From assembly GCA_022827055.1 (NCBI GenBank), contig JAJDTR010000088.1, positions 9,043-73,042 of the forward strand: a DNA stretch of 64,000 bases, given 5' to 3'. This DNA is from Candidatus Poribacteria bacterium (lineage in GTDB: Bacteria; Poribacteria; WGA-4E; JAJDTR01). Positions 4,376 to 42,691 of this stretch are shown piece by piece. Each line of letters opens with the position of its first letter. The first letter of the stretch is position 1. The position numbers and the translations under genes were made by a program. Below the pieces are notes generated by a model. The model worked only from the letters and a program-made list of their open reading frames with translations, had not been told where the DNA came from and did not search any database.

Positions 4376-5734
4376 TCAGATAGAAGGCTGTGGAGCGTTG
4401 GCGACTGTCCGTCTCAACGCAGCATGGACTGTCTTTCCCTGAATCATCTCGTTTTCTAGTCCTACCAACTTGACGGAGGCGACTTGATTAATTTCTGACG
4501 CGGGAACGTCCAACAGAACCCGTAGATAATTTGGCGTAAATCCTGCGAGTTGCCCCGTCTTTCCCTCGCGACTGTCTTCAACCAGAACATCCACCTTCTT
4601 TCCCAGCATACGCCGTTTGAAGGCGCTGCCAAGGCGATTCCCCAAGTCGATCATCCTCCCGCTGCGCGCTGCGGAAACGCCCGGAGGCACCTGGTTCGGA
4701 TAGTCTGCGGCTGGCGTGCCGCGCCGCGGAGAATAACGGAAGACGTGCAGTTGGCTGAATCCGATTTCCCGGACAAACTGGAGTGATTCCTCAAAGTCGT
4801 TATCGGTTTCCCCTGGAAAACCGACCATGACATCGGTTGTTATTCCAACATCCGGAAAGGCGCCGCGCAGTTTCTCCACAAGCCGGGCGTATTCTGACGT
4901 GGTGTAGCGCCGCCGCATGCTACGCAGAATCTTATCGTTACCCGCTTGGAGTGGGAGGTGAAAGTGGGGCATACACTTCGGCAGGGCAGCCATCCGGTCT
5001 ACGAGGTCGTCGGGAAAATTCATCGGTTCGATTGAGCTGAATCGTATGCGTTCTATGTCTTCAATCGGATGAATCTGCTCCAGAATGTCGCCGACATCCA
5101 CCCTCCTCTCAATGTCCAGTCCATACGCGCCCAAGTGGACGCCGGTTATCACGATCTCCTTGTACCCGCTCGCGGCGATGCGCTCCGCCTCGCTTACAAT
5201 GTCCGTCAGGCTACGGCTTGTCATCCGACCGCGCACATAAGGAATAATGCAGTAGGTGCAGAATGCGCTGCACCCGTCCTGAACCTTAATCAGCGCGCGC
5301 GTACGCTGGCTCGTATGGCTAATCCCCGCACTGAATCTTGCATGTTCGCGCACCGGATCATGCTGGATGGGCTCAATCTGCAAGGGTTCGAATTCGCGGA
5401 GTTTATCCAAATAGCCTTGGAAGTCCGCTTTCTCGCGATTCCCGAAAACGAGTGTTACTCCCGGTATTTTCGCGACGGCTTCGCGGTCACTCTCGGCATA
5501 GCAACCCGTAACCAGCACTTTGGCTTTCGGGTTTTGCCGGACGATTCGGCGAATTGATTTACGGGCTTTCTGATCGGCGACGTTTGTCACCGTGCAGGTG
5601 TTCACCACATAAACATCAGCGATTTCGTTTGCATCGACGATGGTGTAACCGTTCCGATCCATCGTCTCGTGCATTGCGTCGGTGTCGTACTGATTCACCT
5701 TGCAACCCATGGTGAGGAATGCTGCTGTCGGCAT
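4376..5734 (-). CDS. MiaB-family tRNA methylthiotransferase (MtaB-like; radical SAM + TRAM)
   Basis: MTTase N-domain (LTMGCKVNQYDTD). Radical-SAM CxxxCxxC (CSAFCTYC). C-terminal TRAM domain. Lies immediately downstream of rsmE, as in Bacillus yqeU-yqeV. Confidence 0.85.
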   Translation of the reverse strand: MPTAAFLTMGCKVNQYDTDAMHETMDRNGYTIVDANEIADVYVVNTCTVTNVADQKARKSIRRIVRQNPKAKVLVTGCYAESDREAVAKIPGVTLVFGNREKADFQGYLDKLREFEPLQIEPIQHDPVREHARFSAGISHTSQRTRALIKVQDGCSAFCTYCIIPYVRGRMTSRSLTDIVSEAERIAASGYKEIVITGVHLGAYGLDIERRVDVGDILEQIHPIEDIERIRFSSIEPMNFPDDLVDRMAALPKCMPHFHLPLQAGNDKILRSMRRRYTTSEYARLVEKLRGAFPDVGITTDVMVGFPGETDNDFEESLQFVREIGFSQLHVFRYSPRRGTPAADYPNQVPPGVSAARSGRMIDLGNRLGSAFKRRMLGKKVDVLVEDSREGKTGQLAGFTPNYLRVLLDVPASEINQVASVKLVGLENEMIQGKTVHAALRRTVANAPQPSI

Positions 5735-6127
5735 GTCGATAGTCTATCTAGTTCTGGTTGAGTAGTCTTTGTGTCGCAATCTGTGCGTCGATTAGGATGA
5801 TTCGATGACCGCGCGTTTGTCCGAGTTTGGATGATATAGTATGACCACCCCATTGTCAAGGCGCATTAGGAACGGCGCAATCGCATCTGATTGTAGGGAC
5901 GGCCCCCGTGCCGTCCCATGTTGTGGCAGGCTTTCATGGCTGACCCGACTGGATGGCGTGCAATTTTCATAAGCAATCTAGAGGCGTGTCTGTTGAAAAA
6001 AGACGAACACAGGGGTCCGCCCCTACAAGTATGCGTGCGTTGTTGTCCCTTGGGCATAGCGAGGGGAAAGGATCGGGACGAAAATATCGTAACACAGCCA
6101 ATTTAATTCAGATGCGATTAGCTAAAA

Positions 6128-6862
6128 TCAGAAGCGGCGCAGCTCATAGACTGCGATAGCGACGGCTACAATAGCGGCTGTTTCCGTACGCAGTGTATTG
6201 CCTCCAAATGTGACGGGAATACACGCGTTATCAATCGCCTCCCTAACCTCGGCGTCCGAAAACCCGCCCTCGGGTCCGATAATCAGCCCGACTGATTTCA
6301 CGTCGTAATGGTCGCGCAAGACACTCTTGATTTCGCGTTCTACTTCATTTTCCCAGAGGAGCAATGACAGATCGCAATTCTTCGCCTGTTCAAGACATTC
6401 GCCGATTGTTCGCTGCGGGAGCAGTTTCGGAAACCTCGGACGTCCACACTGCTTGGATGCTTCAATCGCGATTCGTACCCATCGATCCTGCCGTTTTTGT
6501 TGAGCATTTCCCCCGCGCTTTGGGATTGATCTCTGGCATGTCATCGGGACGATTTCGTCTACACCGATTTCCGTGGTTTTCTGAACGATCAGATCCATCT
6601 TGTCCGATTTGGGAATCGCTTGAAAGAGCGTGATGTGCGGAGGAATTGGCGGGTGAAATTGGTGGTCATGGATTGATGCTATCGCGGGGAGAGATTCCGT
6701 GTCCTCTAGGCGAGCGACGTAACTGTTGCCACCCCCGTCAAAGATTTGCACGTCGTCACCGGATGTTAACCGGAGCACATTCAAAAGGTGATGACGTTCG
6801 GGGTCGCGGATGCGGATGGTGTCGGATGAGATGTCGCTTGGAGGAACATGGAATCGATGCAT
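6128..6862 (-). CDS. rsmE: 16S rRNA (uracil1498-N3)-methyltransferase
   Basis: 244 aa. IGPEGGFS motif and N-terminal PUA-like region. Typical RsmE length. Confidence 0.85.
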   Translation of the reverse strand: MHRFHVPPSDISSDTIRIRDPERHHLLNVLRLTSGDDVQIFDGGGNSYVARLEDTESLPAIASIHDHQFHPPIPPHITLFQAIPKSDKMDLIVQKTTEIGVDEIVPMTCQRSIPKRGGNAQQKRQDRWVRIAIEASKQCGRPRFPKLLPQRTIGECLEQAKNCDLSLLLWENEVEREIKSVLRDHYDVKSVGLIIGPEGGFSDAEVREAIDNACIPVTFGGNTLRTETAAIVAVAIAVYELRRF

Positions 6863-7036: not shown

Positions 7037-7882
7037 TTACGATTGGCGCAGTTTTTCGATATCCACTTCAGACATTCCCGTTGTTCTCGCAATGAATTCG
7101 GTGTCTAGCCCTTCGCTGATCAGTGAAAGGGCAATCTTCTCCGTCGTCTGCTGGTTTCCCTCTTCAAGTCCCTTTTCATGTCCTTCTTCAAGCCCTCGTT
7201 TATGTTCATAAACCAGGGAATCTTCCCAATCCTCTTCGTCCTTAAGCACTCGAAGTTCACCGGGCGAGATGTTGTCGCGTGTAACCGAATGAATCACTTT
7301 TTCGAAAGCTGGAGTGGTGAAACGGCTTTCATCAATCTCACCATCAAGAGAATCCAAAACGAGTTCCAACCAAGTTTTGATGCCCGGCGGAGTTTTTTCA
7401 TTGACCATGCGGGGTACCAAGAACACGATTTTCTCGGGATAAGGATGGACTTTGCGACCGATCCCGTTGATAGGGGGGTTGAAGTCCGTGGTATCAGCAG
7501 TGAACTCAATTTCATTCTCGCGAGGAGGACTGGTTATGACGACAATGGTGTACACGGTCCGTCCGATCTCATAGGCTTTGCTGCTTATCACTTGTTCGGC
7601 GGTGTAGAGAAGATAGTAGTACATGAAACTCTCACGGAAGAGGTATTCTTTGACATGATGCACTTCAACTATAATTCGAGATTCCAGGTCCTCGGCGAAC
7701 AGGTCGTACTCAATATCAACCTGACCGACAGGCTTGAGGAATTTGTAGCCTTGATGCACCTCGTCCGTATGAAACTCAATGCCTAAAACATCTTTGGCGA
7801 ACTGACAGAAGATGTCGGGCTGGCTGAAAGCTTTCTTGAAAGTGGTGTCGTATCGTAAGGGGACAACTCGTACCATGTCCAC
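7037..7882 (-). CDS. Rpn-family (TIGR01784/PDDEXK_7-like) PD-(D/E)XK nuclease / putative transposase
   Basis: 281 aa. N-terminal PD-(D/E)XK-like core (DIEYD...IVEVHH). Characteristic C-terminal DUF4351-like helix-turn-helix tail (ALSLISEGLDTEFIARTTGMSEVDIEKL). Confidence 0.6.
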   Translation of the reverse strand: MDMVRVVPLRYDTTFKKAFSQPDIFCQFAKDVLGIEFHTDEVHQGYKFLKPVGQVDIEYDLFAEDLESRIIVEVHHVKEYLFRESFMYYYLLYTAEQVISSKAYEIGRTVYTIVVITSPPRENEIEFTADTTDFNPPINGIGRKVHPYPEKIVFLVPRMVNEKTPPGIKTWLELVLDSLDGEIDESRFTTPAFEKVIHSVTRDNISPGELRVLKDEEDWEDSLVYEHKRGLEEGHEKGLEEGNQQTTEKIALSLISEGLDTEFIARTTGMSEVDIEKLRQS

Positions 7883-29179: not shown

Positions 29180-29201
29180 AAATACAATACGGAGGAAATA
29201 G

Positions 29202-30290
29202 ATGGTTGATGAAGTACGGCGGGAGATAGAAAGAATACGAGAATATATATCAAACGAACGGTTAAGCCAGTTTGATGAAGCTAACACAAAAGCAACCGCC
29301 ATCGAGCCGATTCTGCGCGCACTTGGTTGGGACGTGGCCGACCCCGATGAAGTGAGGCGCGAATTTTCTGTGCGCGCCAGACCGAATGCTCGCCCGGTAG
29401 ACTATCTGTTGTTTTGCGACGACACGCCTAACGTCATCGTTGAAGCGAAAAGGGGCAATCAGTCGTTAGAACGACATCAGGAGCAACTTCAGGATTATGT
29501 CGGTTTCGCACTTTCCGATAATGTTCAAATCGCGGTACTTACCAACGGCGCAGCGTGGTGGTATTATCTGCCCATCCGGGCTGCAAGTTGGGAGCGGAGA
29601 AGAGTCGCGACTGTAGAACTCAGTCAACAAGATAGTAGAGATGTTGCTCAAACATTGGTTAATCTCCTTGGTAAAGAAAATGTCAAATCTGGAAGAGCCA
29701 TTCAAAACGCTGAGAGACATCAGATTTCAGACACCTTACCTAAGATATGGAATCAGCTAATAGCGCAGACTGACAGTTCGATTGTGAATCTCCTTATTGA
29801 ACAAATCCATGGGTTGTGCGTGCGTGAGCCGGATAGGAACGAAGTAGAGCAGTTTCTCTCCGGGCATCTCGAACAGATACAAATAACGCCCCTACCGAGC
29901 ACTCCTGATTCGGTGCCTCCGGTAGAGCCGCATCCCTCGCCGGAACCAAGTCCTTCAGGTTCCGTGACGGGCAAAAAACCAGTTGCATTCATATTTAACG
30001 GAAGCAGATATGAGGTTACATCATGGAGGGCAATGTTAATCAGGCTATGTGAGATAGTTTATTCCGCTCACAGGAATCGCTTTGAGGATGTATTGAGTCT
30101 CAAGGGAAAAACCAAACCTCCCTTTTCAAGAAATGCTGGTGGCATGGCCTCCCCAGTACAAATTAACAGCACAGGAATCTTTGTTGAGACCCATGGCGCC
30201 GCCCAAGCCCTTGTGAAGCGTGCAACAAGGCTAATCACACGCTTTGGATACGGCGAAAACGACCTGTTATTCGAGACTCAGACACCATGA
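29202..30290 (+). CDS. HsdR-N-like (type I restriction enzyme R N-terminal, PD-(D/E)XK) domain protein, paralog A
   Basis: 362 aa. N-terminal NEANTKATAIEPILRALGW...VDYLLF...VIVEAKR (D...EXK catalytic core), characteristic of the HSDR_N-type nuclease domain. C-terminal ~200 aa has no recognised motif. Stop overlaps (ATGA) the start of a response-regulator 5' remnant. Confidence 0.65.
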   Translation: MVDEVRREIERIREYISNERLSQFDEANTKATAIEPILRALGWDVADPDEVRREFSVRARPNARPVDYLLFCDDTPNVIVEAKRGNQSLERHQEQLQDYVGFALSDNVQIAVLTNGAAWWYYLPIRAASWERRRVATVELSQQDSRDVAQTLVNLLGKENVKSGRAIQNAERHQISDTLPKIWNQLIAQTDSSIVNLLIEQIHGLCVREPDRNEVEQFLSGHLEQIQITPLPSTPDSVPPVEPHPSPEPSPSGSVTGKKPVAFIFNGSRYEVTSWRAMLIRLCEIVYSAHRNRFEDVLSLKGKTKPPFSRNAGGMASPVQINSTGIFVETHGAAQALVKRATRLITRFGYGENDLLFETQTP

Positions 30291-30545
30291 AACCAAGCAT
30301 TCTAGTAATTGACGACGAAATCAGCATCTACAAATCCCTACAAGGCGTGTTGGATGACGAGGGTTACACCGTCCAACCGCTCTAAGCAACGGAGAGGGGG
30401 TTTGCCCCTCGCTAATGAGCACATCGATCTTGTCTTCTTGGATATCCCCATGCCCGGTGGGATGGACGGGATCGAAACACCCAAGCGGATGAAACAGATG
30501 TCACCCGACACAGAAGCGCAGGTACATGGGGTTGAACATACGTAA
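30287..30545 (+). pseudogene. Remnant of the 5' ~260 bp of the NtrC-like response-regulator gene (frameshifted receiver-domain fragment)
   Basis: MKPSILVIDDEISIYKSLQGVLDDEGYTVQ then HIDLVFLDIPMPGGMDGIETPKRMKQMS in another frame. Roughly 80-85% nt identity by eye to 33133-33390. Confidence 0.75.
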
Positions 30546-30557
30546 CAGGGTTTAAGA

Positions 30558-31622
30558 ATGTGTGAACAAGTTTTGAATGTAATTGAAAGATGGCAGGCAG
30601 ATGAACGTTTGACTGCATTTAGTGAAGCTAGGATATGTTCTGCGGTTATTGTACCGATATTACGCGGGTTAGGCTGGGATGTTGAGAACCCTGAAGAAGT
30701 GTGGGAACAGTATCCTGTGGAAGAGATAGGTACGGTGGATTATGCTTTGTTGATTGGCAATGAGCCGAAGGTCTTGGTTGAAGTAAAAAGAGGCGGTGAA
30801 TCGCTGGATAGACATCAAATTCAAATTCGGAATTATGCTCGTATAGGCGGGGTTAGCTTAGCAACACTAACCAATGGCGGAACTTGGCGGTTCTATTTGC
30901 CATTGCAGGGGGGAAGTTGGGAGCGGACGAGAGTTGGGGATGTCGTATTTCATGATCAGAACGCTGCAGAAATTACCCAAAGGCTGGTAGACCTTCTCAG
31001 TAGAGAAAATGTCAGCTCTGAGAACGCAATCCGAAATGCAGAAAATCTTCAAGAGAGGAATCGTATATTGAAGGCCTTGCCGAAGGCATGGGAGCAATTG
31101 GTGAATAACAAAATCCCAAATCTCCTCGCAGCACAAGCGCAGGAATTATGCGGACATAAGCCAAGTAGGAACGAAGTGGAGAAATTTCTTTCTGCACATC
31201 TCCAACAGATAACGTCAACTCTGGTTGCCACTGAATCTGTTGCATCTGATGAGCATATTGTAGTGTCCGAATCTGCTACTCAACTAAATCCTTCAGGCCG
31301 CTCGGTACGCACGACATGCCGAGCGTTTACATTTTGCGGAAACAGATATGAGGTTTCGTCGTGGCGCCACATGTTGGTCCGATTATGCGAGATATTGCAT
31401 GCCACTCACAGCGATCGGTTTGAGGAGGTATTGGGTCTCAAAGGAAGGAAACCTTACTTTTCAAAAAAACCTGGAGCTTTGGCAGAACCAAAATTAATCG
31501 AAGGAACAGACATTTTTGTTGAAACCGATGATTCGAAAAGAAACAGAAAGATTGCAGAGCTTCTGATTAGCCTCTTTGGATATAACAAAGGAGAACTATC
31601 TTATGAACCTCGCACATTATGA
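30558..31622 (+). CDS. HsdR-N-like PD-(D/E)XK domain protein, paralog B
   Basis: 354 aa. TAFSEARICSAVIVPILRGLGW...VDYALL...VLVEVKR core. Roughly 35-40% identity to paralog A over the full length. Its stop again overlaps (ATGA) the next response-regulator remnant. Confidence 0.65.
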   Translation: MCEQVLNVIERWQADERLTAFSEARICSAVIVPILRGLGWDVENPEEVWEQYPVEEIGTVDYALLIGNEPKVLVEVKRGGESLDRHQIQIRNYARIGGVSLATLTNGGTWRFYLPLQGGSWERTRVGDVVFHDQNAAEITQRLVDLLSRENVSSENAIRNAENLQERNRILKALPKAWEQLVNNKIPNLLAAQAQELCGHKPSRNEVEKFLSAHLQQITSTLVATESVASDEHIVVSESATQLNPSGRSVRTTCRAFTFCGNRYEVSSWRHMLVRLCEILHATHSDRFEEVLGLKGRKPYFSKKPGALAEPKLIEGTDIFVETDDSKRNRKIAELLISLFGYNKGELSYEPRTL

Positions 31623-31744
31623 CGCCACAACGCAAACCCAACATCTTAATCATTGACGGGAAACCGGCATTTTCTAAATCTTTACAAGATATCTTGGAGG
31701 ATAAGCTTGACACGGTATATTCCTCCATCGGCTGTCACGGTTAG
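31619..31744 (+). pseudogene. Second, more diverged remnant of the response-regulator 5' end (~125 bp)
   Basis: MTPQRKPNILIIDGKPAFSKSLQDILEDKLDTVY then a stop. Aligns to the RR N-terminus MSAKFKPNILIIDDEISICESLQGVLEDEGYTV. Confidence 0.65.
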
Positions 31745-32168
31745 TATCAACTCACTCATCATTGAACCAATTTTGCGGCAATTGGGTTGGAATACGAGTA
31801 ACCCTGATGAAGTGCGACCAGGATATTCTGTAAAACACAGGAGGGTGGACTACGCTTTATTAATCAACAATACAGCCAAGGTATTCATTGAAGTGATAAA
31901 AGGTGGTAAAGCGTTGCAAAGACGTCAAAAGCAACTTCTGCGTGACGTTTTTCATCATGGCGTTGAAATCACAGTACTCACCAACCTCAAAACGTGGTGG
32001 ATTTATCTGCCCATCCGAACAGTAAGTGGGGATCGGAGGAAAGTCGTAACTGTGAAACTTGATCGACGCGATAATACTGAGGCTGCCGAAACGATGGTTG
32101 ATCTCCTTAGCAAAGAAAATGTCAGATCTGGGAGAGCCATCCCAAACGCCGCTTGGCGAGGAAACTAG
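31745..32168 (+). pseudogene. Truncated HsdR-N-like paralog C (lacks N-terminal ~35 aa and the entire C-terminal half)
   Basis: Translation IIEPILRQLGW...VDYALL...FIEVIKGG...WWIYLPIR...SKENVRSGRAIPNA aligns to residues ~35-175 of paralog A and then stops. The six-frame ORF 31653-32168 is a chimera that reads RR remnant 2 out of frame. Confidence 0.6.
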
Positions 32169-32219
32169 CATGAGACTTGAAACTGTTACATGTACTTCTC
32201 ACCGATGGAGGAAAACAAA

Positions 32220-33117: not shown

Positions 33118-34479
33118 ATGAGTGCCAAATTCAAACCCAACATTTTAATCATTGACGACGAAATCAGCATTTGCGAGTCCCTGCAAGGCGTCTTGGAGGA
33201 CGAGGGTTACACCGTCCAAACCGCTCTCAGTGGCGAGGAGGGGATTCGTATCCTTGCGGGTGAGCACATCGACCTCGTTTTCTTGGACATCCTCATGCCC
33301 GGCGGAATGGATGGGATTGAAACGCTCAAGCGGATAAAGCAGATGTCATCCGACACGGAGGTGCTCATGATTTCCGGGCACGGAACGTTTGATCTCGCCC
33401 TGGAAGCCGGACAGTTGGGCGCTTCCGACTTCTTGGGGAAACCGCTTTCGCTCGACAGCATCCTGAGAAAGGTTGAGGCAATCAGCGCGAAGATTGCCAT
33501 CAGGCATTCCGACCGCGATGGGGACACGGATTCGCACGCACACGGCATTGTTGGAGATAGCTCGCAGATTCAGGAGATTCTACTGACAATTCGGCAGGTG
33601 GCGCCGACAAACGGACGGGTGCTCATCACCGGCGAGAGTGGCACAGGCAAGGAGCTCATCGCCCACGCCATTCACGCCTTCAGCGAGCGGACCGAGGCGC
33701 CGCTCGTCAAAGTCAATTGTGCGGCAATCCCCCAAGAGTTGATTGAATCGGAGCTATTTGGACATGAAGCAGGCTCGTTTACGGGAGCGTCTAAGAAGCG
33801 AGTCGGGAAGTTTGAGCAAGCGAATGGCGGGACGATATTCCTGGATGAAATTGGAGATATGAGCTTGTCAACGCAAGCCAAGGTGCTGCGGGTGTTGGAG
33901 GAACGGGAGTATGAGCGAGTCGGCGGGAATCAGACGCTGAGAACGGATGTCCGCGTCATCTCGGCGACGAACAAGCATCTTCCCGACGAAATTGAATCGG
34001 GCAATTTCCGCGAGGATCTTTACTACCGATTGAACGTCGTCCCGGTTCATGTCGCGCCGCTGCGAGAGCGGGTTGAGGATTTGCCGCTGCTTGTGGATTA
34101 TTTCCTGTCGCGATTCTGCCGCGAAAACGGGAAACAGACGATGTCCCTAAGCGATGCCGCCATGAACAATCTTCGGAGACGCGAGTGGCTGGGAAATGTG
34201 CGCGAGTTGCGCAACCTGATGGAAAGAGCCGTTATCCTGTGTCCGAATCAGACGATTGACGAAAGCGATTTATCGAAGGAAATACGACGAGATAGCACTG
34301 ACGGGGACAGTTCGGAGGCATCGCTCAAGGATGCGCGGCAGGAGTTTGAGAGCCGTTTTATTCTTAACTGCCTCAAGGGAAACAGTTGGAACATCACCGA
34401 AACGGCAAAACAACTCGGCATTGAGCGAACGCATCTGCATCGCAAAATGCGCCAGTATGAGATTGAGCGTGAACCGTAG
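33118..34479 (+). CDS. Sigma-54-dependent response regulator (NtrC/AtoC family: receiver + AAA+ sigma54 activator + Fis-type HTH)
   Basis: Receiver motifs DLVFLD and the phospho-acceptor Asp context. GESGTGKE Walker A. GAFTGA loop. C-terminal HTH (TAKQLGIERTHLHRKMRQ). Confidence 0.9.
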   Translation: MSAKFKPNILIIDDEISICESLQGVLEDEGYTVQTALSGEEGIRILAGEHIDLVFLDILMPGGMDGIETLKRIKQMSSDTEVLMISGHGTFDLALEAGQLGASDFLGKPLSLDSILRKVEAISAKIAIRHSDRDGDTDSHAHGIVGDSSQIQEILLTIRQVAPTNGRVLITGESGTGKELIAHAIHAFSERTEAPLVKVNCAAIPQELIESELFGHEAGSFTGASKKRVGKFEQANGGTIFLDEIGDMSLSTQAKVLRVLEEREYERVGGNQTLRTDVRVISATNKHLPDEIESGNFREDLYYRLNVVPVHVAPLRERVEDLPLLVDYFLSRFCRENGKQTMSLSDAAMNNLRRREWLGNVRELRNLMERAVILCPNQTIDESDLSKEIRRDSTDGDSSEASLKDARQEFESRFILNCLKGNSWNITETAKQLGIERTHLHRKMRQYEIEREP

Positions 34480-34486
34480 CCAGCCT

Positions 34487-34957
34487 CTAATTTTCTGAAT
34501 CAGTGCGGCGGCGTTGGATGGATTTGGGAGGTCCAAGAATTTCGCGCAGTATGATACCTTGACGGAACGTCTGAGATGTTAGAGAGATGCCCGCAATTGT
34601 CTTAGGCGCCGCTTGGGAGGGCGTGGCTTCTTTTCGTTCCACTGCCCGATTTAAGGCCGTGCGCTCAATTGGTTTCTCCGCTGTGGTACTAGGCTGAGGT
34701 TCAGTCTCATCCGCTACTCTTAATGGTGGAGCGGGTTTGGGCGGCGGCGGTTCCTCCAGTTGCAGAAAGTCCGGTAACGATTCAGTGACATCCTCATCCG
34801 TCGTTTTGATATTGCCCCAGGGGGGCAGTTTGACTTCCTGTTCGTCCTCTAACACCACCTCAGGTTCCGATTCGCGCGGCTTCTTGCGGCGAAAAGCGCG
34901 ACCCAGCAACGTAAGCGCTATGATGATGAATGGAATTAGTTGAATTAGCTCGTCCAC
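34487..34957 (-). CDS. Small membrane-anchored Pro/Glu-rich protein (hypothetical; YqfB-position gene downstream of floA)
   Basis: N-terminal TM helix (LIPFIIIALTLLG), then an acidic proline-rich linker. Same strand as, and immediately downstream of, the FloA paralogs. Confidence 0.35.
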   Translation of the reverse strand: MDELIQLIPFIIIALTLLGRAFRRKKPRESEPEVVLEDEQEVKLPPWGNIKTTDEDVTESLPDFLQLEEPPPPKPAPPLRVADETEPQPSTTAEKPIERTALNRAVERKEATPSQAAPKTIAGISLTSQTFRQGIILREILGPPKSIQRRRTDSEN

Positions 34958-35044
34958 GGTTGGTTACCTTACCTGTGACGTTTTTCGGGCGGTTGAGCAG
35001 GTTCAATTGAAGATGAACTGAACCCACCGTCCCGCTTCGGTTAC

Positions 35045-36076
35045 CTACGTAAGCCCGATCGAATGTGCTGATCTAGTCGTATCGGTTTCACGCTCGCCGC
35101 CAGGAGAGGCAATGGCTTGGCGCATCTCCGTATCGGCGAGGATATTCCTGAGGTTGTAGTAATCCATAACGCTCATTCGACTGGAATCAAATGAATCGGC
35201 GATTGCGCGAGGAACTTCGGCTTCCGCTTCAACAAGGGTAACGGTCATCTCTTCAACAAGCGCTTTGTTTTCCTCTTCCTCCGCTTGCGCTCGGGCTCGC
35301 CTCTCCTCCGCTTTTGCCTGCGCGATCTTCAATTCTGCTTGCGCCTGATCGGTCTGCAGCTTGGCGCCGACGTTCTCGCCTACGTTGATGTCGGCGATAT
35401 CGATTGACAAAATCTCAAAGGCGGTTCCGGCGGATAACCCTTTTTCGAGCACAGTTTCCGAAATGCGTACCGGGCTTTCCAAAACCTCCTTGTGACTCGC
35501 CGCAGAGCCGATTGTCGTGATAATCCCTTCACCTACTCTGGCTCTAATGGTTTCTTCGGTAGCCCCGCCGACGAGACGATCAATGTCCGCCCTCACCGTC
35601 ACACGTGCCTTGACAATAAGCTGAATGCCATCACGCGCAACGGCGGTAATTCCGGATTGGGTGTCTCCCTTGGAGGGAATGTCGATGATTTCCGGCGTGA
35701 CGCTGACCTGTACGGCTTGCAACACATCGCGGCCGGCAAGGTCGATTGCGGCGGCTTGCGCGAAGTCAAGTGAGATGTTCGCTTTATCCGCGGCGATGAG
35801 CGCTGCGACGACACTGGCAACTCTTCCGCCCGCGAGATAGTGCGCCTCTAGTTCATCGAGCGAAAGGTTGAGCCCCGCCTTGGTCGCGTTGATTTGCGGC
35901 TCTATGATGCCTTTGGGAGGCACACGCCGCAAACGCATCGCGACCAGATCGCCAAAGATCCGCACCCGAACATTCGCCGCGATCGCGGTGATCCATAAAC
36001 CGATAGGGACGAACGTGGTGAGGAATATGAGAAATACAATAACAAGAACCGCGAGTATCGCAACAACTGACGGCAT
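35045..36076 (-). CDS. floA: Flotillin-like protein FloA (UPF0365/YqfA family), paralog 1
   Basis: 343 aa. N-terminal TM hairpin. Band-7/SPFH core ([11 protein letters not shown]...[17 protein letters not shown]). C-terminal EA-rich coiled coil ([24 protein letters not shown]). Confidence 0.8.
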
Positions 36077-36090
36077 CTGAAACCCTCCTT

Positions 36091-36996
36091 CTAAGATTGC
36101 GGTGTTAAGGTGCCTTCGCGGAACGCACCCGCGAGCGCGCGGGGAACGGAAGCCTCGGCTTCGACAACCGTAGCTCGCATCTTCTGGACATTGGCTGTCA
36201 TCTCCTGCTTACGCGCGACTGCCATCGCTCGTCTTTCCTCCGCCTTAGCCTGCGCAACGACCAGATCGGCTTCGGCTTGCTCGGCTTGGAGTTCGGCTCC
36301 GATGTTCTTCCCAACGTTGACATCGGCAATATCAATGGAGAGAATCTCATAGGCAGTGCCCGCGTCTAGCCCCCGATCCAACACGGTTTTGGACATAACG
36401 TCGGGATTTTCAAGGACATCTTCGTAAGTCTCCGCGGCGCCAATTGCGCTAATGATTCCCTCTCCGACCCGCGCAATAATTGTCTCTTCGCCCGCGCCAC
36501 CGACGAGTCTGTTGATGTTCGTCCTGACAGTGATTCGCACGACGGCAATCAGCTCAACGCCGTCAAGTGCGACCGTGCTGATACGCGGTGTCGTGATGAC
36601 GCGAGGGTTGACGCTAACCTGTACGGCTTCAAATACATCTCGCCCCGCTAAATCAATTGCAGCGGAACGCTGGAAATTGAGGTCGATTTTCGCTTTGTCC
36701 GCGGCAATCAATGCGTTCACGACTCTCAGCACGTTTCCGCCCGCAAGGTAGTGCGCTTCAAGATCGGTCGTTTTAACTGTCAGACCTGCCTTGGTCGCGC
36801 TAATCTGTGCGTTAACAATTACGTTCGGATTCACCCGCCGTAAACGCATCCCGACCAAATCGCCGATGATGCGGATTCGCACACCTGCCGCTTGAGCGGC
36901 AATCCACAGACCGACAGGCACAAACCAAAAGAATACTAGCAGAAAAATCAGTATCAATACGGCAATAATCGCTGTAAAACCTGTTATATCAGGCAT
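36091..36996 (-). CDS. floA: Flotillin-like protein FloA, paralog 2
   Basis: 301 aa. About 55% identical to paralog 1 along the SPFH core. Has the same EAEAD...[10 protein letters not shown] tail. Confidence 0.8.
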
Positions 36997-37021
36997 CTAG
37001 ATCTCCTTCCTGTTTAAACTT

Positions 37022-37672
37022 TTACGATTGAGATGGGGATTCTTGGTTGTCCCTGTTTCCGACTTCAGCCTGGAGCGCGTGAGAGACTATTTCAACCTTG
37101 GCAGTGAGTTTGCTTATGTCGGCGTGGGTTGCCTGAGCGTTAGCATGAATTGCCTCGGTGTTGGCATCAATCTTCTCGCCGAGTCTCACCATCTGAGACT
37201 GCATCAATCTCATATCTTCACGAATTTCATTGGTGATTGCCAGGGAAGTGGTAAATACTTTGTCAATCTGCTGTTGAAGATTAGAGGTTTCATTTTCAAT
37301 CTGCTTTTGAAGATTGGATATTTCGCTTCCAATCTGCTGTTGACGACCGGATGTTTCGTTTTCAATCTGCTTTTGAAGATTGGATGTTTCGTTTTCGATC
37401 TGCTTTTGAAGGATGGACGTTCCGCTTTCAATCTGCTTTTGAAGGATGGACGTTTCGTTTTCGATCTGCTTTTGAAGATTGGTTGTTACGCTTCCAATCT
37501 GCTCTTGACGACTTGATGCTTCTTTATCAATTTGCTTTTGGAGGTTGTCTGCTATCCTATTCATTTCTGCCCTACTGGGAATGCGCCATCCCAATAGAAA
37601 TATTGTGACCCCAAAGCCTAAAATAGTGACGATTGGCAACAGCTCTTTCATTGCACCCATCAATTCTACCAC
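37022..37672 (-). CDS. Membrane-anchored coiled-coil protein built from 11-residue tandem repeats (LQKQIENETSN)
   Basis: N-terminal TM helix. About 8.5 copies of an 11-aa heptad-like repeat. C-terminal apolipoprotein-like helices. Confidence 0.55.
   Translation of the reverse strand: MVELMGAMKELLPIVTILGFGVTIFLLGWRIPSRAEMNRIADNLQKQIDKEASSRQEQIGSVTTNLQKQIENETSILQKQIESGTSILQKQIENETSNLQKQIENETSGRQQQIGSEISNLQKQIENETSNLQQQIDKVFTTSLAITNEIREDMRLMQSQMVRLGEKIDANTEAIHANAQATHADISKLTAKVEIVSHALQAEVGNRDNQESPSQS
37262..37545 (-). repeat. 33-bp tandem repeat array (about 8.5 units) encoding the 11-aa LQKQIENETSx repeats
   Basis: Plus-strand unit TTCAATCTGCTTTTGAAGATTGGATGTTTCGTT, repeated head-to-tail with point variants. 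Confidence 0.8.
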
Positions 37673-37702
37673 GGTTCAATTTCTCCTTACTTTGCAGATT
37701 GT

Positions 37703-38020
37703 TTACAGGCTCCGAACAACAACCCGGCTTCCTTCTACTGCAACCACTTCCACCTCTGTTTCAGGCTCGATAAATTCTCCGTTAGTGATCACATCCACCC
37801 GCTGTCCATCAATCAGGGCGACACCCGCCGGTCGCAGCGGTGACAGGGATTGTCCGGATTGACCGGCTAAAGCCGCTAGTTCTTGAGGCGCAGCCTGAAA
37901 TCCATCGGCGCTATTCTCTGTAGTCTTGAGAATTAGGGTTCGCACCAATTTCACCACAATGGCTATCAGAACCGCGACAATCACCAAAGTTAGAATTGTG
38001 TCCATCCCGAAATTCCCCAT
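37703..38020 (-). CDS. NfeD-like short protein (TM helix + C-terminal OB-fold)
   Basis: 105 aa. C-terminal PAGVALIDGQRVDVITNGEFIEPETEVEVVAVEGSRVVV is the NfeD C-terminal beta-barrel consensus. Confidence 0.6.
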   Translation of the reverse strand: MGNFGMDTILTLVIVAVLIAIVVKLVRTLILKTTENSADGFQAAPQELAALAGQSGQSLSPLRPAGVALIDGQRVDVITNGEFIEPETEVEVVAVEGSRVVVRSL

Positions 38021-38031
38021 TTGACAACTGT

Positions 38032-38514
38032 TTACCGACTCCTCACGACAACTCGACGCCCCTCAACGGCAACTACTTCCACTTCCGTTTCGGGTTGTAT
38101 GAACTCCCCGTTGGTGACTACGTCTATCCGCTTGCCATCAATCAGGGCAACTCCTGCCGGTCTGAGGGGAGACACGGACTGACCGACGCGACCGACTAAA
38201 TCTGCTAACTCCTGCGGCGGGGCTTGAAAACCGTCGTCGCTATTTTGAGCGGTCCGAAGAATGACGGTTCGGCCGAGCCGTGTTCGGGGCGCGAGCCACA
38301 ATCCCAAGATGGCAAGCGGGATAATAATGACAACCGTCCTTCCGGCGTATAGCGAGGCGGTTTCCCATCCGTTTTCGAACCAAACTATCCCAATACCGAC
38401 ACATATGAGAATTATTCCCGGCACACCAGCCGCCCCGAAATCGGGAAGCAGAATAATCTCAATGAATAGCAATAGGACCCCTAAACCGAGGAGAAAGAGG
38501 GGTAGCGGCGGCAT
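38032..38514 (-). CDS. NfeD-like short protein, paralog (3 TM + OB-fold)
   Basis: 160 aa. C-terminal 60 aa is about 80% identical to the 105-aa paralog (PAGVALIDGKRIDVVTNGEFIQPETEVEVVAVEGRRVVV). Confidence 0.65.
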   Translation of the reverse strand: MPPLPLFLLGLGVLLLFIEIILLPDFGAAGVPGIILICVGIGIVWFENGWETASLYAGRTVVIIIPLAILGLWLAPRTRLGRTVILRTAQNSDDGFQAPPQELADLVGRVGQSVSPLRPAGVALIDGKRIDVVTNGEFIQPETEVEVVAVEGRRVVVRSR

Positions 38515-38608
38515 AAGCGCATCCTTTTATGGGAGGCTATCGCAGAAATTCACTCTATCCTTCAAGGACCTAGAGGAGTCAAGTGCGCTGTGTGACTTGA
38601 ATCCTGTC

Positions 38609-40147
38609 TTACGTTGTGTTGGTTTCCTCTTCCAAGGCTTCCACGAAGACCTTCGAGCCTTCTACCTCTATCACTTTCACGGCGGTTTCAGAAGGGATGA
38701 AATCGCCCGCGGTAAGTACATCAACGCGTTTGCCGGCGAGGCGTATTGTACCTGCCGGACGCAGGGGTGTAATCGCCGTCCCGGTCTGCCCGACATAACT
38801 CTGATAATCTTCATCCCCTGCAGAATGAAAGCCAATGTCCGAACTCATCTCGGTTGCTAAAGCGAAATGCTTCCATGCGCGTGTCTTGGGGAAGAAACAA
38901 AACGTGGCAATCACAAAGGCAGCGGTGAGGACGATAACAGATGAGAACGCCAGAATTGCCGTTTCAAACTGATAGGCGCTCTTGAATACATAAAATATAC
39001 CGCCGAACATAAGGATTATGCCCGAGATTCCCGCAACTCCAAATCCCGGCAGAACGAAAACCTCTACCAAAATCAACCCCAATCCCAAAACAAATGCCAA
39101 TGCCGCCCACTGGGCGTCGATTTGGCTCAACATGTGTCCGCCGAAGAAGATTCCGAGACATAGCAAACCAATCATTCCGGGCACGCCAAATCCGGGCGAT
39201 TGTATTTCTATCCACAATCCGAGCATCCCGAAGGAGAGCAGAAGCGAGCTAATGATTGGACTCGTGAGAAAAATGACAATCCGATCCGCCAATGATACGC
39301 GGGCTTCGTCAATTGCTGCGCCTTCAAGCGACTTGACAAACCATACACTTTCGGCGCCAAGTTCTTCCTGTTTCTGCGATGCGGCTTCTGCCGTTAGCAC
39401 TGTCATAACCCCATCAACCTCGACGATTCGATACATTGCCAAAAGCTCTTCAATGGTTTCCGCACGCCCATGCGCGAAACCGTACTCTAAGGCTTCGTCT
39501 GTGGTCAGAGTCAACAACTCGCCCTCGGCGGAGATGACCTCCATCTCCTCTCCTTTTTGCCTCTCATCTTCATAAATGTCAGGTCTGTACGATTCGATTG
39601 TGCCGTCTGCCAGCCTGACAAGCACCCGTTTCTTGTCAACCATTGCGACCGCGATATGAGGGTTGTACCCTTGTCGTTCCGCGGTTGATTTGATTGTCTT
39701 GCGAATATAAGAAACCGCTTTTTCTCCGGCCTCTTCTCCCTGAATCGAGACCGGCGCGGAATCGCCAATGGTTCCACCGGAGGTCATCACAATCTGGTCG
39801 CATGCAATGGAGATCATTGCGCCTGCGGAAATCGCCTGTCTATTCACATAGGCAATGGTCGGCACGTGCGTGTCTTGAATTGCTCGAATTATCTCGACTG
39901 CGGAATCGACTCGACCGCCGGGAGTGTCAACGTCAAATATAATCGCATCCGCATTAGCGTTTTCAGCACGCGCAATTCCGCTCTGGATGTAAGTGCGTAT
40001 CCCGCTGCCAATCTGATCGCGTATGTTGACAATATGCACCAAGGCTTCATCTTGAGCCGATGAGACCAGTGACATGGCTAGGAGGCTAACGCCGAGTATT
40101 ATGAATATGCAACTTGTCAAACGTGTTCTGCTAAACATGGCAATCAC
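38609..40147 (-). CDS. NfeD long form: ClpP-class membrane serine protease + TM region + OB-fold
   Basis: 512 aa. N-terminal ClpP/SppA-like fold (TPGGRVDSAVEI...GAMISIACDQIVM). Central 5-TM block. C-terminal TAITPLRPAGTIRLAGKRVDVLTAGDFIPSETAVKVIEVEGSKVFV. Confidence 0.75.
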   Translation of the reverse strand: MIAMFSRTRLTSCIFIILGVSLLAMSLVSSAQDEALVHIVNIRDQIGSGIRTYIQSGIARAENANADAIIFDVDTPGGRVDSAVEIIRAIQDTHVPTIAYVNRQAISAGAMISIACDQIVMTSGGTIGDSAPVSIQGEEAGEKAVSYIRKTIKSTAERQGYNPHIAVAMVDKKRVLVRLADGTIESYRPDIYEDERQKGEEMEVISAEGELLTLTTDEALEYGFAHGRAETIEELLAMYRIVEVDGVMTVLTAEAASQKQEELGAESVWFVKSLEGAAIDEARVSLADRIVIFLTSPIISSLLLSFGMLGLWIEIQSPGFGVPGMIGLLCLGIFFGGHMLSQIDAQWAALAFVLGLGLILVEVFVLPGFGVAGISGIILMFGGIFYVFKSAYQFETAILAFSSVIVLTAAFVIATFCFFPKTRAWKHFALATEMSSDIGFHSAGDEDYQSYVGQTGTAITPLRPAGTIRLAGKRVDVLTAGDFIPSETAVKVIEVEGSKVFVEALEEETNTT

Positions 40148-41050
40148 CTCTTCTTAAGTCCGGATGGCGAATGAGGTGGAAAAGTTTATGGATTTCTCGA
40201 GTTCGGTCTGGTCCAATCTGCAATCAAAGCGTACAGAATACACATCACTATTATATCCATCATGCCGTGACCTGTCAAGCCTTTTGAAACTCAGCATCTA
40301 CGGTGTTGACGCTTGTGATCGATTGACATTCTCGCTTACCAAATGGTGCTGCGATGGAGGGAAAACCGCTAATATTTTCCCGAAGTCTTACGCCACCGCA
40401 TTCGTGCTAACAACCCCTGATCTCTGCACGGTATTTGCCGTTTCTTTTCGATGTCGTCAACGCTGATTTGAAACGCGACGGTCCGGTAGGTGCGATTTCC
40501 GGATCGCGAGCACATTCTCCGGCTCAATCAAGATTCCGTGGAAAGGCATCTGAATGCAGGGCTTGATATGCGGGGCACCTGGAATCTGCTTGTATAGGCT
40601 CTTGCATAGGGTAAAACACATGTCTAATCCCCTGATTTCCTTGATATTGGACAGAGTTAATCGTTGATTAGAGATTAACAATTCAAATTTGAGTCATTGG
40701 CAGACCGCAGACGCAGACGAGTTGATTGTCGCACGCCCCATAAGCTTTTGATGATATTGTCATTGCTTTCTGCTGTAACCTGGGAAAGTGTTATCGCCTA
40801 GGGGACACCCGACCTGCGAGGTAACACCACGCCCGATTTTTCTCGACACAATTTATACAACGTGCTAAAATGATATCTACTTGGCGGAGGCAATTTTAAA
40901 CGTTATAAACCGAGTTTATGCTGGAATCCTCGGTTTCTGCCGCTTTATGAGAGACGAAGAAGTTCTGCCCACTGCAGTACCTAAGCAGAATCGGATGTTC
41001 TGCAAACAGTATCCCCACCCAAAAATCTCTATCACGGAGGAGCGTTGATA

Positions 41051-42691
41051 ATGAAATTCCTAAGAATACTTGCGGCTTGCTCGCTGCTCGGATTTGGGTT
41101 GTTAACCGCGGCTTTTGCGGAATCCAAGCTAATATCAAGCGATCCGAACAGGGGAGACCAGTTCGGTTGGTCGGTAGACATCAGCGGGCATACGATAATT
41201 GTTGGCGCCCCAATCAACAGCGAAAACAACCTTATCGAGCACGGATCAGCGTATATCTTTACGCTCAAGAGAGAAGGCAACAAGGACAACTGGGAAGAGA
41301 AGGCGGTGCTCGATCCGAAGGAAGACGGACGCCGAAACGACAACTTCGGTTACGCTGTGGCAATTGATGGCGACTATGCGGCAATCGGATCCCCCGGAAT
41401 TAATAGTTCCACCGGTGCCGTGTATGTCTACAAGCGCAGCGGGGGCGCTTGGAAGCAACAGCAGAAAATCGAAGCCGCCGACGGCAAAAAGAGGGACAAT
41501 TTCGGGCATTCCGTCGACATATTCGGAGAACATCTCATCGTGAGCGCTTATCTCGACGATAGCAAAGCCGGATCCGCCTATATTTTCATCCGCAACGGAG
41601 ACAGATGGCGACAGCAGGCGAAACTCACCGGTAACGACACCGCGAAAGGCGACAATTTCGGCGAGGCGGTTGCCTTCGCCGGTAACGAGAACGGCGTCGA
41701 CTTTGCCATTGTTGGAGCGCCTAACAACACACACAACGGAAAGAAGTCGGGCGCCGCATATATCTTTGTTCATGATGGAGGAAATTGGACGGAAGAAACC
41801 AAGTTGGTATCCGCTGACGCTCAAACCTCCGACTTTATTGGAGATGCCGTATCCATTAGTGGACACCGCGGCATTAAGCGTTATGCCCTCGTCGGAGCGC
41901 CGCATTTGGACTTGGCGCAGGACGTAGAGGGTAGGAGCAGCGCCGCATATATCTTCTCGAGCGATGGAGGCGCTTGGAGGGAGGAAGCCAAGCTTACGGC
42001 AAAGGATAAGGAGAAGGCAGACGGCTTCGGATCGGGGGTTTCAATCAATCGTAATATCGCGTTAGTCGGCGTCCCTCGACACGGCGAAGGCGCCATTCTG
42101 GACGGTGAACTTAATGCGGGAATCGTGTACCCATATCTGCGTGACGGCGACCAATGGATTAGGCAAGGGTCTCGGGCAACCACCGTACCCCCGGAATTTC
42201 CGGAACAGAGTTTCGGAAATGTGGTAATAGCCACGCAGGAGTTTATTGTCATCGCCGCGTACGGCTTGCAAAAGGGCAATCCTGATCGCGGTGATCCGAA
42301 CGGTGGGGCGGTTTATATCTATTACACACAAAGGGACTGGAAACTTCCCTACTCGGTCGAACCGTCATTGCTAAGAGCGGCAACGCTGGGGGGAATTAAG
42401 AGGACTGCGCTATTCCAAAACTTCCCGAACCCGTTTAATCCGGAGACCTGGCTGCCCTATCAATTGGGGAGCAAGTCAGATGTGGCATTCCATATCTTCA
42501 ACACGCGAGGACAACTGGTGCGCCGATTAGATGTTGGGACTCAGTCAGCGGGCAGTTATCAGAACAAAGAAACCGCCGCCTATTGGGATGGGCAGGATCA
42601 GCTGGGCCAGGCGGTATCCAGCGGTCTTTACTTCTACACACTGACCGCAGGCACGTCTCAAATCACGCGCCGGATGTTGATTTTGAAATAG
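41051..42691 (+). CDS. Secreted FG-GAP/integrin-alpha-like beta-propeller repeat protein with C-terminal T9SS (Por) sorting domain
   Basis: Signal peptide. Repeated DNFG..VAI.GD.A.IG.P...GA.Y.F motifs (FG-GAP). C-terminal ~80 aa NFPNPFNPETW...YFYTL....R.MLILK, typical of T9SS type-A C-terminal domains. Confidence 0.65.
   Translation: MKFLRILAACSLLGFGLLTAAFAESKLISSDPNRGDQFGWSVDISGHTIIVGAPINSENNLIEHGSAYIFTLKREGNKDNWEEKAVLDPKEDGRRNDNFGYAVAIDGDYAAIGSPGINSSTGAVYVYKRSGGAWKQQQKIEAADGKKRDNFGHSVDIFGEHLIVSAYLDDSKAGSAYIFIRNGDRWRQQAKLTGNDTAKGDNFGEAVAFAGNENGVDFAIVGAPNNTHNGKKSGAAYIFVHDGGNWTEETKLVSADAQTSDFIGDAVSISGHRGIKRYALVGAPHLDLAQDVEGRSSAAYIFSSDGGAWREEAKLTAKDKEKADGFGSGVSINRNIALVGVPRHGEGAILDGELNAGIVYPYLRDGDQWIRQGSRATTVPPEFPEQSFGNVVIATQEFIVIAAYGLQKGNPDRGDPNGGAVYIYYTQRDWKLPYSVEPSLLRAATLGGIKRTALFQNFPNPFNPETWLPYQLGSKSDVAFHIFNTRGQLVRRLDVGTQSAGSYQNKETAAYWDGQDQLGQAVSSGLYFYTLTAGTSQITRRMLILK

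Follow-up and report, generated by a model that had tools for sequence, protein, structure and literature searches.

The closest described relatives of the genes analyzed here are the yqeZ-floA(yqfA)-yqfB operon of Bacillus subtilis and the nfeD-floA operon of Staphylococcus aureus, which share the same family order (a long NfeD of the NfeD1b type, FloA of PF12127 and, probably, YqfB of PF27722) and in which the OB domain of NfeD is the partner-binding module, as it presumably is here. The location of floA directly 3′ of nfeD is the general arrangement (PMC11222466). In S. aureus the OB-like domain of NfeD reportedly binds the FloA coiled coil via its β3-β4 face, OB-OB contacts join FloA dimers into larger assemblies, and NfeD stabilizes high-molecular-weight forms (PMC11222466). 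Here we analyze 64,000 nucleotides of DNA (the window) from Candidatus Poribacteria, a phylum of sponge symbionts. The window contains the poribacterial form of the nfeD-floA-yqfB membrane-microdomain operon (yqeZ-yqfA-yqfB in Bacillus), and our main subject is the pair of FloA paralogs encoded in it, FloA1 and FloA2.

Complexes of SPFH proteins are homo- or hetero-oligomeric rings and domes; in the known heteromeric pairs, HflK/C, FLOT1/2, PHB1/2, and Erlin1/2, the paralogs alternate, and their C-termini are the most divergent parts and adopt two conformations (PMC12624060). The poribacterial FloA pair resembles HflK/HflC, flotillin-1/2, prohibitin-1/2, and erlin-1/2 in that adjacent or co-expressed SPFH paralogs diverge most at the C-terminus (PMC12624060). 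Unlike these pairs, it belongs to the FloA subfamily and is a putative heteromer, and FloA1 has lost its tail outright whereas the known tails are merely remodeled. A short NfeD (membrane helices and OB domain) is paired with an SPFH protein in E. coli QmcA-YbbJ as well, according to Tan et al. (2024) as cited in PMC12624060; the SPFH subfamily is different there, and in Poribacteria the short NfeD occurs beside a long NfeD and, in the lineage of the window, beside a third, single-helix NfeD as well. As in our locus, a long NfeD with a ClpP-like Ser-Lys domain (the 1510-N protease) stands beside an SPFH partner in PH1510/PH1511 of Pyrococcus horikoshii, but the partner here is FloA and not a stomatin, and the protease domain, located behind a signal peptide, is predicted to lie in the periplasm. 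To our knowledge, work on bacterial FloA has dealt with a homo-oligomeric scaffold encoded by a single gene, and its higher-order architecture is poorly resolved.

The operon and its phylum-wide core

The operon consists of seven open reading frames (ORFs) on the minus strand, read from 40147 to 34487 with gaps of 11-94 bp. An earlier note on this DNA had described seven same-strand genes, all of which are present, although its span of 35045-40147 leaves out the seventh (34487-34957); the identities and numbers it gave (two FloA, three NfeD, a repeat protein, and a Pro-rich protein) are borne out by profile matches and repeat analysis. The features, with lengths in amino acids (aa), are:

40250..40278, minus strand: candidate operon promoter, sigma-70 consensus match TTGACA-17-TATAAT, ~100 nt upstream of NfeD-long
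38609..40147, minus strand: NfeD-long, 512 aa (public gene calls start at ATG 40138, 509 aa)
38032..38514, minus strand: NfeD-short, 160 aa
37703..38020, minus strand: NfeD-mini, 105 aa (100 aa if read from 38005, where the start is conserved among relatives)
37022..37672, minus strand: REP, the repeat protein, 216 aa
37263..37547, minus strand: 33-bp tandem repeat array inside REP (Tandem Repeats Finder: 8.6 copies, 78% matches)
36091..36996, minus strand: FloA1, 301 aa
35045..36076, minus strand: FloA2, 343 aa
34487..34957, minus strand: probable YqfB-family Pro-rich membrane protein, 156 aa

The candidate promoter agrees with the consensus at 12 of 12 positions and is the sole perfect sigma-70 match in 34300-40600; this one promoter probably drives transcription of the operon.

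With the FloA pair as query, we scanned GTDB at one genome per species, which yielded about 40 genomes of Poribacteria and about 40 of other phyla, and mapped the domains of the window onto all ORFs of these 80 loci (cited by L numbers where needed). Essentially every poribacterial species encodes NfeD-long, NfeD-short, two FloA (~300 and ~343 aa), and a Pro-rich protein (~150 aa), and the order of these core genes is conserved across the species representatives; FloA2 is 98-99% identical to that of the window in four poribacterial genomes. The usual layout outside Poribacteria is NfeD-long with one FloA, and several Desulfobacterota, Fibrobacterota, and unclassified metagenome-assembled genomes (MAGs; L052, L068, L071, L073, and L075) have NfeD-long, NfeD-short, and one FloA. 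The FloA pair, the long and short NfeD, and the Pro-rich gene are a phylum-wide core, in which the FloA pair is ancient. Compared with the operons of B. subtilis and S. aureus, Poribacteria thus have two FloA instead of one and a short NfeD throughout the phylum, and the lineage of the window alone has NfeD-mini and REP in addition.

REP and the third NfeD are lineage-specific and vary independently of each other: L091, whose FloA2 is 96% identical to that of the window, has a REP of 59% identity but no NfeD-mini, and L004 has NfeD-mini but no REP. Because the core is phylum-wide and these two genes occur in a narrow lineage only, the operon is made up of layers of different age and not, as the earlier note had it, of one expanded supercluster. 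The sequences derive from metagenome-assembled genomes, and the duplications could in principle be assembly artefacts or decaying pseudogenes. However, the same gene order recurs in dozens of independent assemblies, including closed chromosomes, all ORFs are intact, and the ratio of nonsynonymous to synonymous substitution rates (dN/dS) is well below 1 for every gene. Conservation and dN/dS effectively refute the artefact reading, to which we assign a virtually negligible probability.

FloA1 and FloA2 differ in tail and coiled coil

Profile searches placed the region 35045-36996 in the FloA family and 37703-40147 in the NfeD family, as the earlier note had proposed. FloA1 matched PF12127 with an E value of 9e-138 (459 bits, profile positions 2-289 of 314) and FloA2 with 2e-141 (471 bits, positions 3-312 of 314), and both exceeded the cut-off of 393 bits of the NCBIfam FloA equivalog NF010186 (469 and 477 bits, respectively). 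The two genes lie downstream of nfeD within one operon, 14 bp apart, and their products are 59% identical in the window. Within genomes the identity of FloA1 and FloA2 is ~58%, compared with 64% and 62% to single-copy FloA of other phyla. In a neighbor-joining tree FloA1 and FloA2 formed two separate poribacterial clades, each monophyletic and with mirrored internal topology, and their pairwise distance matrices correlated with r = 0.90. For both proteins dN/dS was 0.00-0.02 at synonymous divergences (dS) of 0.1-0.75. FloA1 and FloA2 are ancient paralogs under very strong purifying selection.

The paralogs differ systematically in three features. The conserved C-terminal tail motif of FloA, G[IV]MDYY..N..ADT.MR..IA, lies at profile positions ~290-314, and FloA1 ends just before it in 41 of 41 Poribacteria, which makes FloA1 a truncated member of the family. 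Every poribacterial FloA2 keeps the tail, continues into a conserved extra end (DTTRS.HS.G.S), and has a 7-residue insert in the SPFH domain. The third feature is the coiled coil, whose first 24 residues carry a charge of −3.0 in FloA1, +1.1 in FloA2, and −0.3 in single-copy FloA, and whose next 26 residues carry +0.5, −5.8, and −2.0, respectively (standard deviation within Poribacteria ≤0.7). From the single-copy state, the charges of FloA1 and FloA2 have thus moved in opposite ways. The sub-functionalization of FloA suspected in the earlier note is supported by these systematic differences, by the conserved clade that each paralog forms across ~40 species, and by the low dN/dS. As co-encoded paralogs that diverge chiefly at the C-terminus, FloA1 and FloA2 also look like a heteromeric SPFH pair.

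A tandem FloA pair is present in one more locus of the sample, a Victivallales MAG (L072:9033-10972, CAXXSX010000002.1) with NfeD-long, in which the upstream copy is tail-less and the downstream copy tailed. The two copies are each other's closest relatives in the neighbor-joining tree and therefore stem from an independent duplication; the tail asymmetry is convergent with that of Poribacteria.

From the sequences and by analogy with other SPFH proteins we infer that FloA1 and FloA2 may assemble together. We prefer an alternating FloA1/FloA2 hetero-oligomer because the genes are adjacent, both products are under equally extreme constraint, each pair has one tail, and the charges are reciprocal. 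FloA1 could instead be a tail-less modulator present in sub-stoichiometric amounts, acting as a cap or terminator to limit or reshape the oligomers of FloA2. The tail helps to form the cap in other SPFH proteins and FloA1 has no conserved tail, and the convergent origin of a tail-less upstream copy in Victivallales would suit such a role as well. But FloA1 is constrained over its whole length as strongly as FloA2, and its position as the upstream gene in a tight operon argues for comparable expression of the two, which leaves this role quite improbable in our view.

Three NfeD proteins, one of them a recent copy

All three NfeD proteins exceeded the cut-off of 29.1 bits for the OB domain PF01957 (NfeD-long 5e-14, 52.8 bits; NfeD-short 6e-13, 49.3 bits; NfeD-mini 8e-14, 52.0 bits). 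NfeD-long also matched PF25145 (NfeD1b_N, 3e-49) and PF24961 (NfeD_membrane, 5e-25, 88 bits), and NfeD-short matched the C-terminal half of PF24961 (2e-7, 31.7 bits). NfeD-mini has one transmembrane (TM) helix and did not show the multi-pass NfeD membrane domain. By homology with S. aureus, all three OB domains are expected to bind FloA coiled coils on the cytoplasmic side.

NfeD-long is similar to the P. horikoshii 1510-N protease (2deo and 3bpp; E 7e-17). Its Ser107, pinpointed via 2deo and the mutant structure 6m4b, and Lys143 align with the catalytic Ser-Lys dyad, which is kept among the NfeD-long sequences of the 80 loci (Ser in 69 of 70, Lys in 70 of 70). The protein appears to be composed of a signal peptide, a ClpP-like Ser-Lys protease domain, ~5 TM helices, a basic stretch, and the OB domain. 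Because a signal peptide and about five TM helices precede the basic stretch, the protease domain is predicted to be on the periplasmic side and the OB domain on the cytoplasmic side. Cleavage of FloA by NfeD-long looks unlikely, since the protease would lie across the membrane from the SPFH domain of FloA.

NfeD-short, with three TM helices and an OB domain, occurs in 38 of the ~40 poribacterial species representatives and has a dN/dS of 0.05-0.18. One poribacterial species whose FloA2 is 89% identical to that of the window has no NfeD-short, and ~460 bp of unrelated, non-coding-looking DNA lie between its NfeD-long and FloA1 genes (L005:8621-9081). NfeD-mini arose recently as a partial tandem duplicate of NfeD-short, to whose C-terminal 96 aa it is 70% identical. 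The earlier note had looked to trees for FloA and NfeD partners that co-evolved; topologies were mirrored between the two FloA clades, and in the OB-domain tree the NfeD-mini clade was sister only to the NfeD-short of the window's own small group. The gene is present in L004 and absent from L091 and from all Poribacteria sampled outside the lineage. Its dN/dS of 0.07-0.14, at dS up to 0.9, indicates that NfeD-mini is maintained and not decaying.

In Bacillus, FloA and FloT organize different microdomains. The two poribacterial FloA proteins could likewise form two separate homo-oligomeric scaffolds, each with a dedicated NfeD and in a different microdomain, which is close to what the earlier note had proposed. 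At least two NfeD proteins are encoded phylum-wide, and the charges of FloA1 and FloA2 differ most in that part of the coiled coil to which the OB domain attaches in S. aureus, so that different OB preferences are conceivable. However, long and short NfeD occur together with a single FloA in the Desulfobacterota, Fibrobacterota, and other loci named above, and two NfeD proteins therefore do not imply two scaffolds; nor does the third, which was recently copied from NfeD-short, add a third specificity. A dedicated NfeD for each FloA is thus not supported. In addition, opposite charge shifts combined with tail loss on one side are the pattern expected of subunits that assemble together, and the two FloA genes are only 14 bp apart in one operon. 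We consider separate scaffolds unlikely. Assigning the NfeD OB domains to FloA1 or FloA2 by net charge was also tried and gave no clear complementarity.

The Pro-rich membrane protein, a probable YqfB homologue

The earlier note had counted the small Pro-rich membrane protein as an extra component. It is most probably a YqfB homologue, which completes the canonical yqeZ-floA-yqfB triad. The precomputed annotation of an identical protein (P0180) names PF27722 "YqfB", with the match labeled weak; the 156-aa protein had no match in the profile libraries that we searched, which did not include the PF27722 model. In poribacterial homologues a basic patch adjoins the N-terminal TM helix; an acidic LPPFMENF/LPPWGN motif and a variable Pro-rich stretch come next, and the proteins share a strongly conserved C-terminal motif, SPQTFRQGIIL.EILG.PK.LR.RR, represented in the window protein by the helical sequence FRQGIILREILGPPKS. 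In other phyla the ORF next to the 3′ end of FloA is built likewise, with a low-complexity linker between its TM helix and a C-terminal [GA]-Φ-Φ-[WLM]-x-E-[IV]-L-x-x-P motif. When searched for as a regular expression, an ORF with the motif was found directly downstream of FloA in 39 of 40 poribacterial and at least 29 of 40 other loci, the misses being mostly contig ends or Bacteroidota, against a background of ~0.4% of all ORFs (FloA-adjacent matches excluded). The window protein has the features of the family: it is small and single-pass, is encoded immediately 3′ of floA, and ends in the conserved helical motif. In its AlphaFold model a TM helix (2-23) is followed by ~95 disordered residues (24-118) and two helices (128-141 and 145-155; predicted local distance difference test score (pLDDT) ~80-88). 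When YqfB-like proteins were sought across phyla with a profile, all matches were unnamed or "hypothetical" proteins, and no Bacillus entry was among them. Three loci (L008:2000-2940, L019:11049-12030, and L028:11046-12096) carry two tandem YqfB-like genes 3′ of FloA2, of which the second encodes a different N-terminal region and the same C-terminal motif.

REP, a hendecad-repeat protein of variable length

The gene between NfeD-mini and FloA1, REP, encodes an N-terminal TM helix, nine 11-residue (hendecad) repeats, and a conserved helical C-terminal part of ~75 aa. The 11-aa repeat described in the earlier note is real: the 33-bp array translates into nine in-register hendecads with the consensus NLQKQIENETS and a hydrophobic periodicity of exactly 3.67 residues. 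AlphaFold predicts a TM helix (2-29) and one continuous helix of 176 residues (34-209, pLDDT >90; mean pLDDT 87), which would correspond to a rod of ~26 nm, or ~13-35 nm across variants. Each 11-residue unit has only two hydrophobic positions (L and I, plus T), and this narrow stripe fits the core of a hendecad coiled coil better than a lipid-binding face. Because the unit is exactly three helical turns (~1.65 nm), a change in copy number would alter the length without rotating the C-terminal part. The acidic N-terminal and basic C-terminal flanks suggest, with low confidence, that the rod is cytoplasmic.

REP was not assigned to any family above threshold in profile searches. Its look-alikes, the apolipoproteins A1/A4/E (PF01442), apolipophorin-III, and LEA-type proteins, also have 11/3 periodicity and long uninterrupted helices; REP differs from these 11-residue-repeat types by its two hydrophobic positions per 11 and its N-terminal TM anchor and is not a member of these families. 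With PF01442 the score was 35.1 bits (cut-off 90), and what the two have in common is the 11-residue periodicity only. Relationship to apolipoproteins or to the ZorA tail was rejected, all coiled-coil matches being sub-threshold. Foldseek found no match of the REP model in the PDB, as expected for a single helix. A plus-strand ORF antisense to REP (37028-37516, 162 aa) most likely just mirrors the 33-bp repeat and is no real gene.

The earlier note had described a novel coiled-coil protein inserted between NfeD and FloA. The insertion stands, but the protein is not wholly novel: its family is poribacterial and includes paralogs encoded as stand-alone genes at other places in the genome. We found 58 relatives among 5.8 billion proteins, all unnamed, metagenomic, and 120-216 aa long. 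The family has an invariant N-terminal anchor (P13, G19, T23, L26-L27, W29-R30, P32-S33, R39, and D42), an EIREDMR.M motif, and two hot spots at which 11-residue units are gained or lost. The copies inside the operon have their own ribosome-binding site and occur only in the lineage of the window. The stand-alone paralogs in L081-L083 and L085 (6001-6516 / 6001-6363), which are distant members of the family, share a conserved position between a DUF4340/ABC-transporter operon and thiC, and expand their units after KIDANSQAI, unlike the operon copies, which use the other hot spot. One closed genome of 6.49 Mb has a stand-alone and an operon copy.

The number of hendecads differs between relatives as follows:

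P0029 and P0034: ~1-2
L001: 5
L003: 7
Window: 9
L086-88 (DNA 99.3% identical to the window): 10
L002: 14

In every length variant (the window, L001-L003, and L086-88) the reading frame is kept and the repeat changes by whole 11-residue units; the REP of L003 lacks a further 7-residue stretch outside the array. The gene contents of L091 and L004 imply that REP was in the operon before NfeD-mini arose by duplication, has been kept since, and was lost once.

Our best guess from the sequence is that REP might serve as a length-adjustable tether or spacer at the microdomain. A competing reading, tenable although we lean away from it, is that REP is an unrelated passenger from a mobile, fast-evolving family of small poribacterial proteins that reached an intergenic slot of the operon and is merely co-transcribed. 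It would account for the stand-alone paralogs beside the ABC-transporter operon, one of them in a genome with a second copy inside the operon, for the absence of REP from L004 and from all Poribacteria sampled outside the lineage, and for its relaxed constraint (dN/dS 0.3-0.56), and it agrees with the lack of any family or fold match in profile searches, PADLOC, and Foldseek against the PDB. Against it, REP has kept the same slot across lineages down to 59% identity, with an intact frame, ribosome-binding site, and hendecad register, and its dN/dS is below 1.

Neighboring genes

Several genes flank the operon. An NtrC-family sigma-54 response regulator (33118-34479, plus strand) is convergent with its 3′ end and is a conserved neighbor in L084 and L086-L091. 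Control of the operon by an NtrC-type sigma-54 activator was considered and rejected: no −24/−12 element is present upstream, and matches in the window are below chance expectation. A 548-aa FG-GAP-repeat protein with a C-terminal type A sorting domain of the type IX secretion system (Por_Secre_tail) is encoded divergently from the operon (41045-42691, plus strand), which its gene also adjoins in related contigs. On the strand of the operon and upstream of the promoter lies an ORF of 54-65 aa (window ~40460-40630, minus strand; L086:2304-2468), which is called in L086-L089 and L091 and has no family match on record.

In the region ~29200-32200, beside the regulator genes, the counterparts of three ORFs (29202-30290, 30558-31622, and 31653-32168) in L086 carry HSDR_N domains, which resemble the N-terminus of restriction enzymes, and a HicB-like antitoxin, which suggests, from the near-identical L086 contigs, a small defense or toxin-antitoxin patch. 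The operon itself does not read as a defense system: a PADLOC scan gave no match for six of its proteins and only weak coiled-coil matches for REP (best 24 bits), and this reading was rejected. The earlier note had also pointed to rsmE (6128-6862) and mtaB (4376-5734) upstream of the operon as an echo of the Bacillus neighborhood. Both genes exist, but on the 3′ side, 29 kb from the operon and with many unrelated genes in between, and we rejected Bacillus-like synteny. Just upstream of this pair, a gene for an Rpn-family recombination-promoting nuclease/putative transposase is located at 7037-7882 on the minus strand (TIGR01784, sub-threshold at 39.8 bits).

Discussion

Overall, we lean slightly toward an NfeD-FloA-YqfB scaffold in which FloA1 and FloA2 form an alternating hetero-oligomer and to which lineage-specific components have been added. 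In SPFH walls, coiled-coil helices pack side by side. FloA1 and FloA2 would stand side by side in one alternating SPFH ring or dome at the cytoplasmic face of the inner membrane. The OB domains of NfeD would dock on the FloA coiled coil and bridge subunits via OB-OB contacts, and this docking would tether the periplasm-facing Ser-Lys protease of NfeD-long and the protease-less membrane module of NfeD-short to the scaffold. The contribution of YqfB would be a C-terminal helical peptide, tethered to the membrane and extended to the scaffold by the disordered linker. The lineage additions occupy the slot between NfeD-short and FloA1: NfeD-mini would probably act as an extra or competing OB adaptor that alters the stoichiometry of cross-linking, and REP would probably be a spacer or tether, a cytoplasmic, membrane-anchored coiled-coil rod whose length changes between strains in steps of 11 residues.

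Several points weigh against this explanation. S. aureus FloA reportedly forms clamp-shaped dimers and fragile rings, seen at ~8 Å, with no defined cage, and the cage analogy is unproven for the FloA family itself. In the Victivallales pair the tails are asymmetric as well, but the coiled-coil charges do not follow the poribacterial pattern. The neighbor-joining tree does not make FloA1 and FloA2 sister clades, and the timing of their duplication relative to the phylum is therefore uncertain. The net charges of the OB domains (−5.1 in NfeD-long, −2.7 in NfeD-short, and −6.0 in NfeD-mini) show no obvious complementarity to the FloA proteins. For REP, YqfB, and the NfeD proteins, the predicted topologies were read from charge bias. 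Finally, REP, a fast-evolving protein (dN/dS up to 0.56) that L004 has lost, may be dispensable or functionally unrelated.

We searched the literature on Poribacteria and flotillin, and on yqfB and floA, and found no paper on this locus. In that literature we saw no description of the phylum-wide tandem FloA pair with tail loss on one side and reciprocal charge, of the convergent tail-less/tailed pair of Victivallales, of the single-helix NfeD-mini, or of a hypervariable hendecad rod gene inside the operon. A bolder reading, which as a whole we think rather doubtful, is an obligate tail-less/tailed FloA scaffold with complementary charges in Poribacteria and, by convergence, in at least one lineage of Victivallales, which in the lineage of the window would have recruited the strain-variable REP as a length-tunable spacer and NfeD-mini as an adaptor. 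If it were true, the pair would be the FloA counterpart of eukaryotic flotillin-1/2 and heteromers with asymmetric C-termini would be recurrent in the SPFH superfamily; REP would space the microdomain from a cytoplasmic partner, and NfeD-mini would be a minimal OB adaptor.

These findings refine a known system and do not overturn the current understanding of it. An always co-encoded, constrained FloA pair is a natural test of alternating FloA hetero-oligomers in the style of HflK/C or flotillin-1/2, and of the role of the conserved FloA tail. The "minimal" NfeD-mini and the "adjustable," length-variable REP could help to dissect how OB domains and accessory proteins engage the scaffold, and YqfB, as a near-universal third member of the operon with a conserved C-terminal peptide, is a candidate partner in FloA systems, including the Bacillus model.

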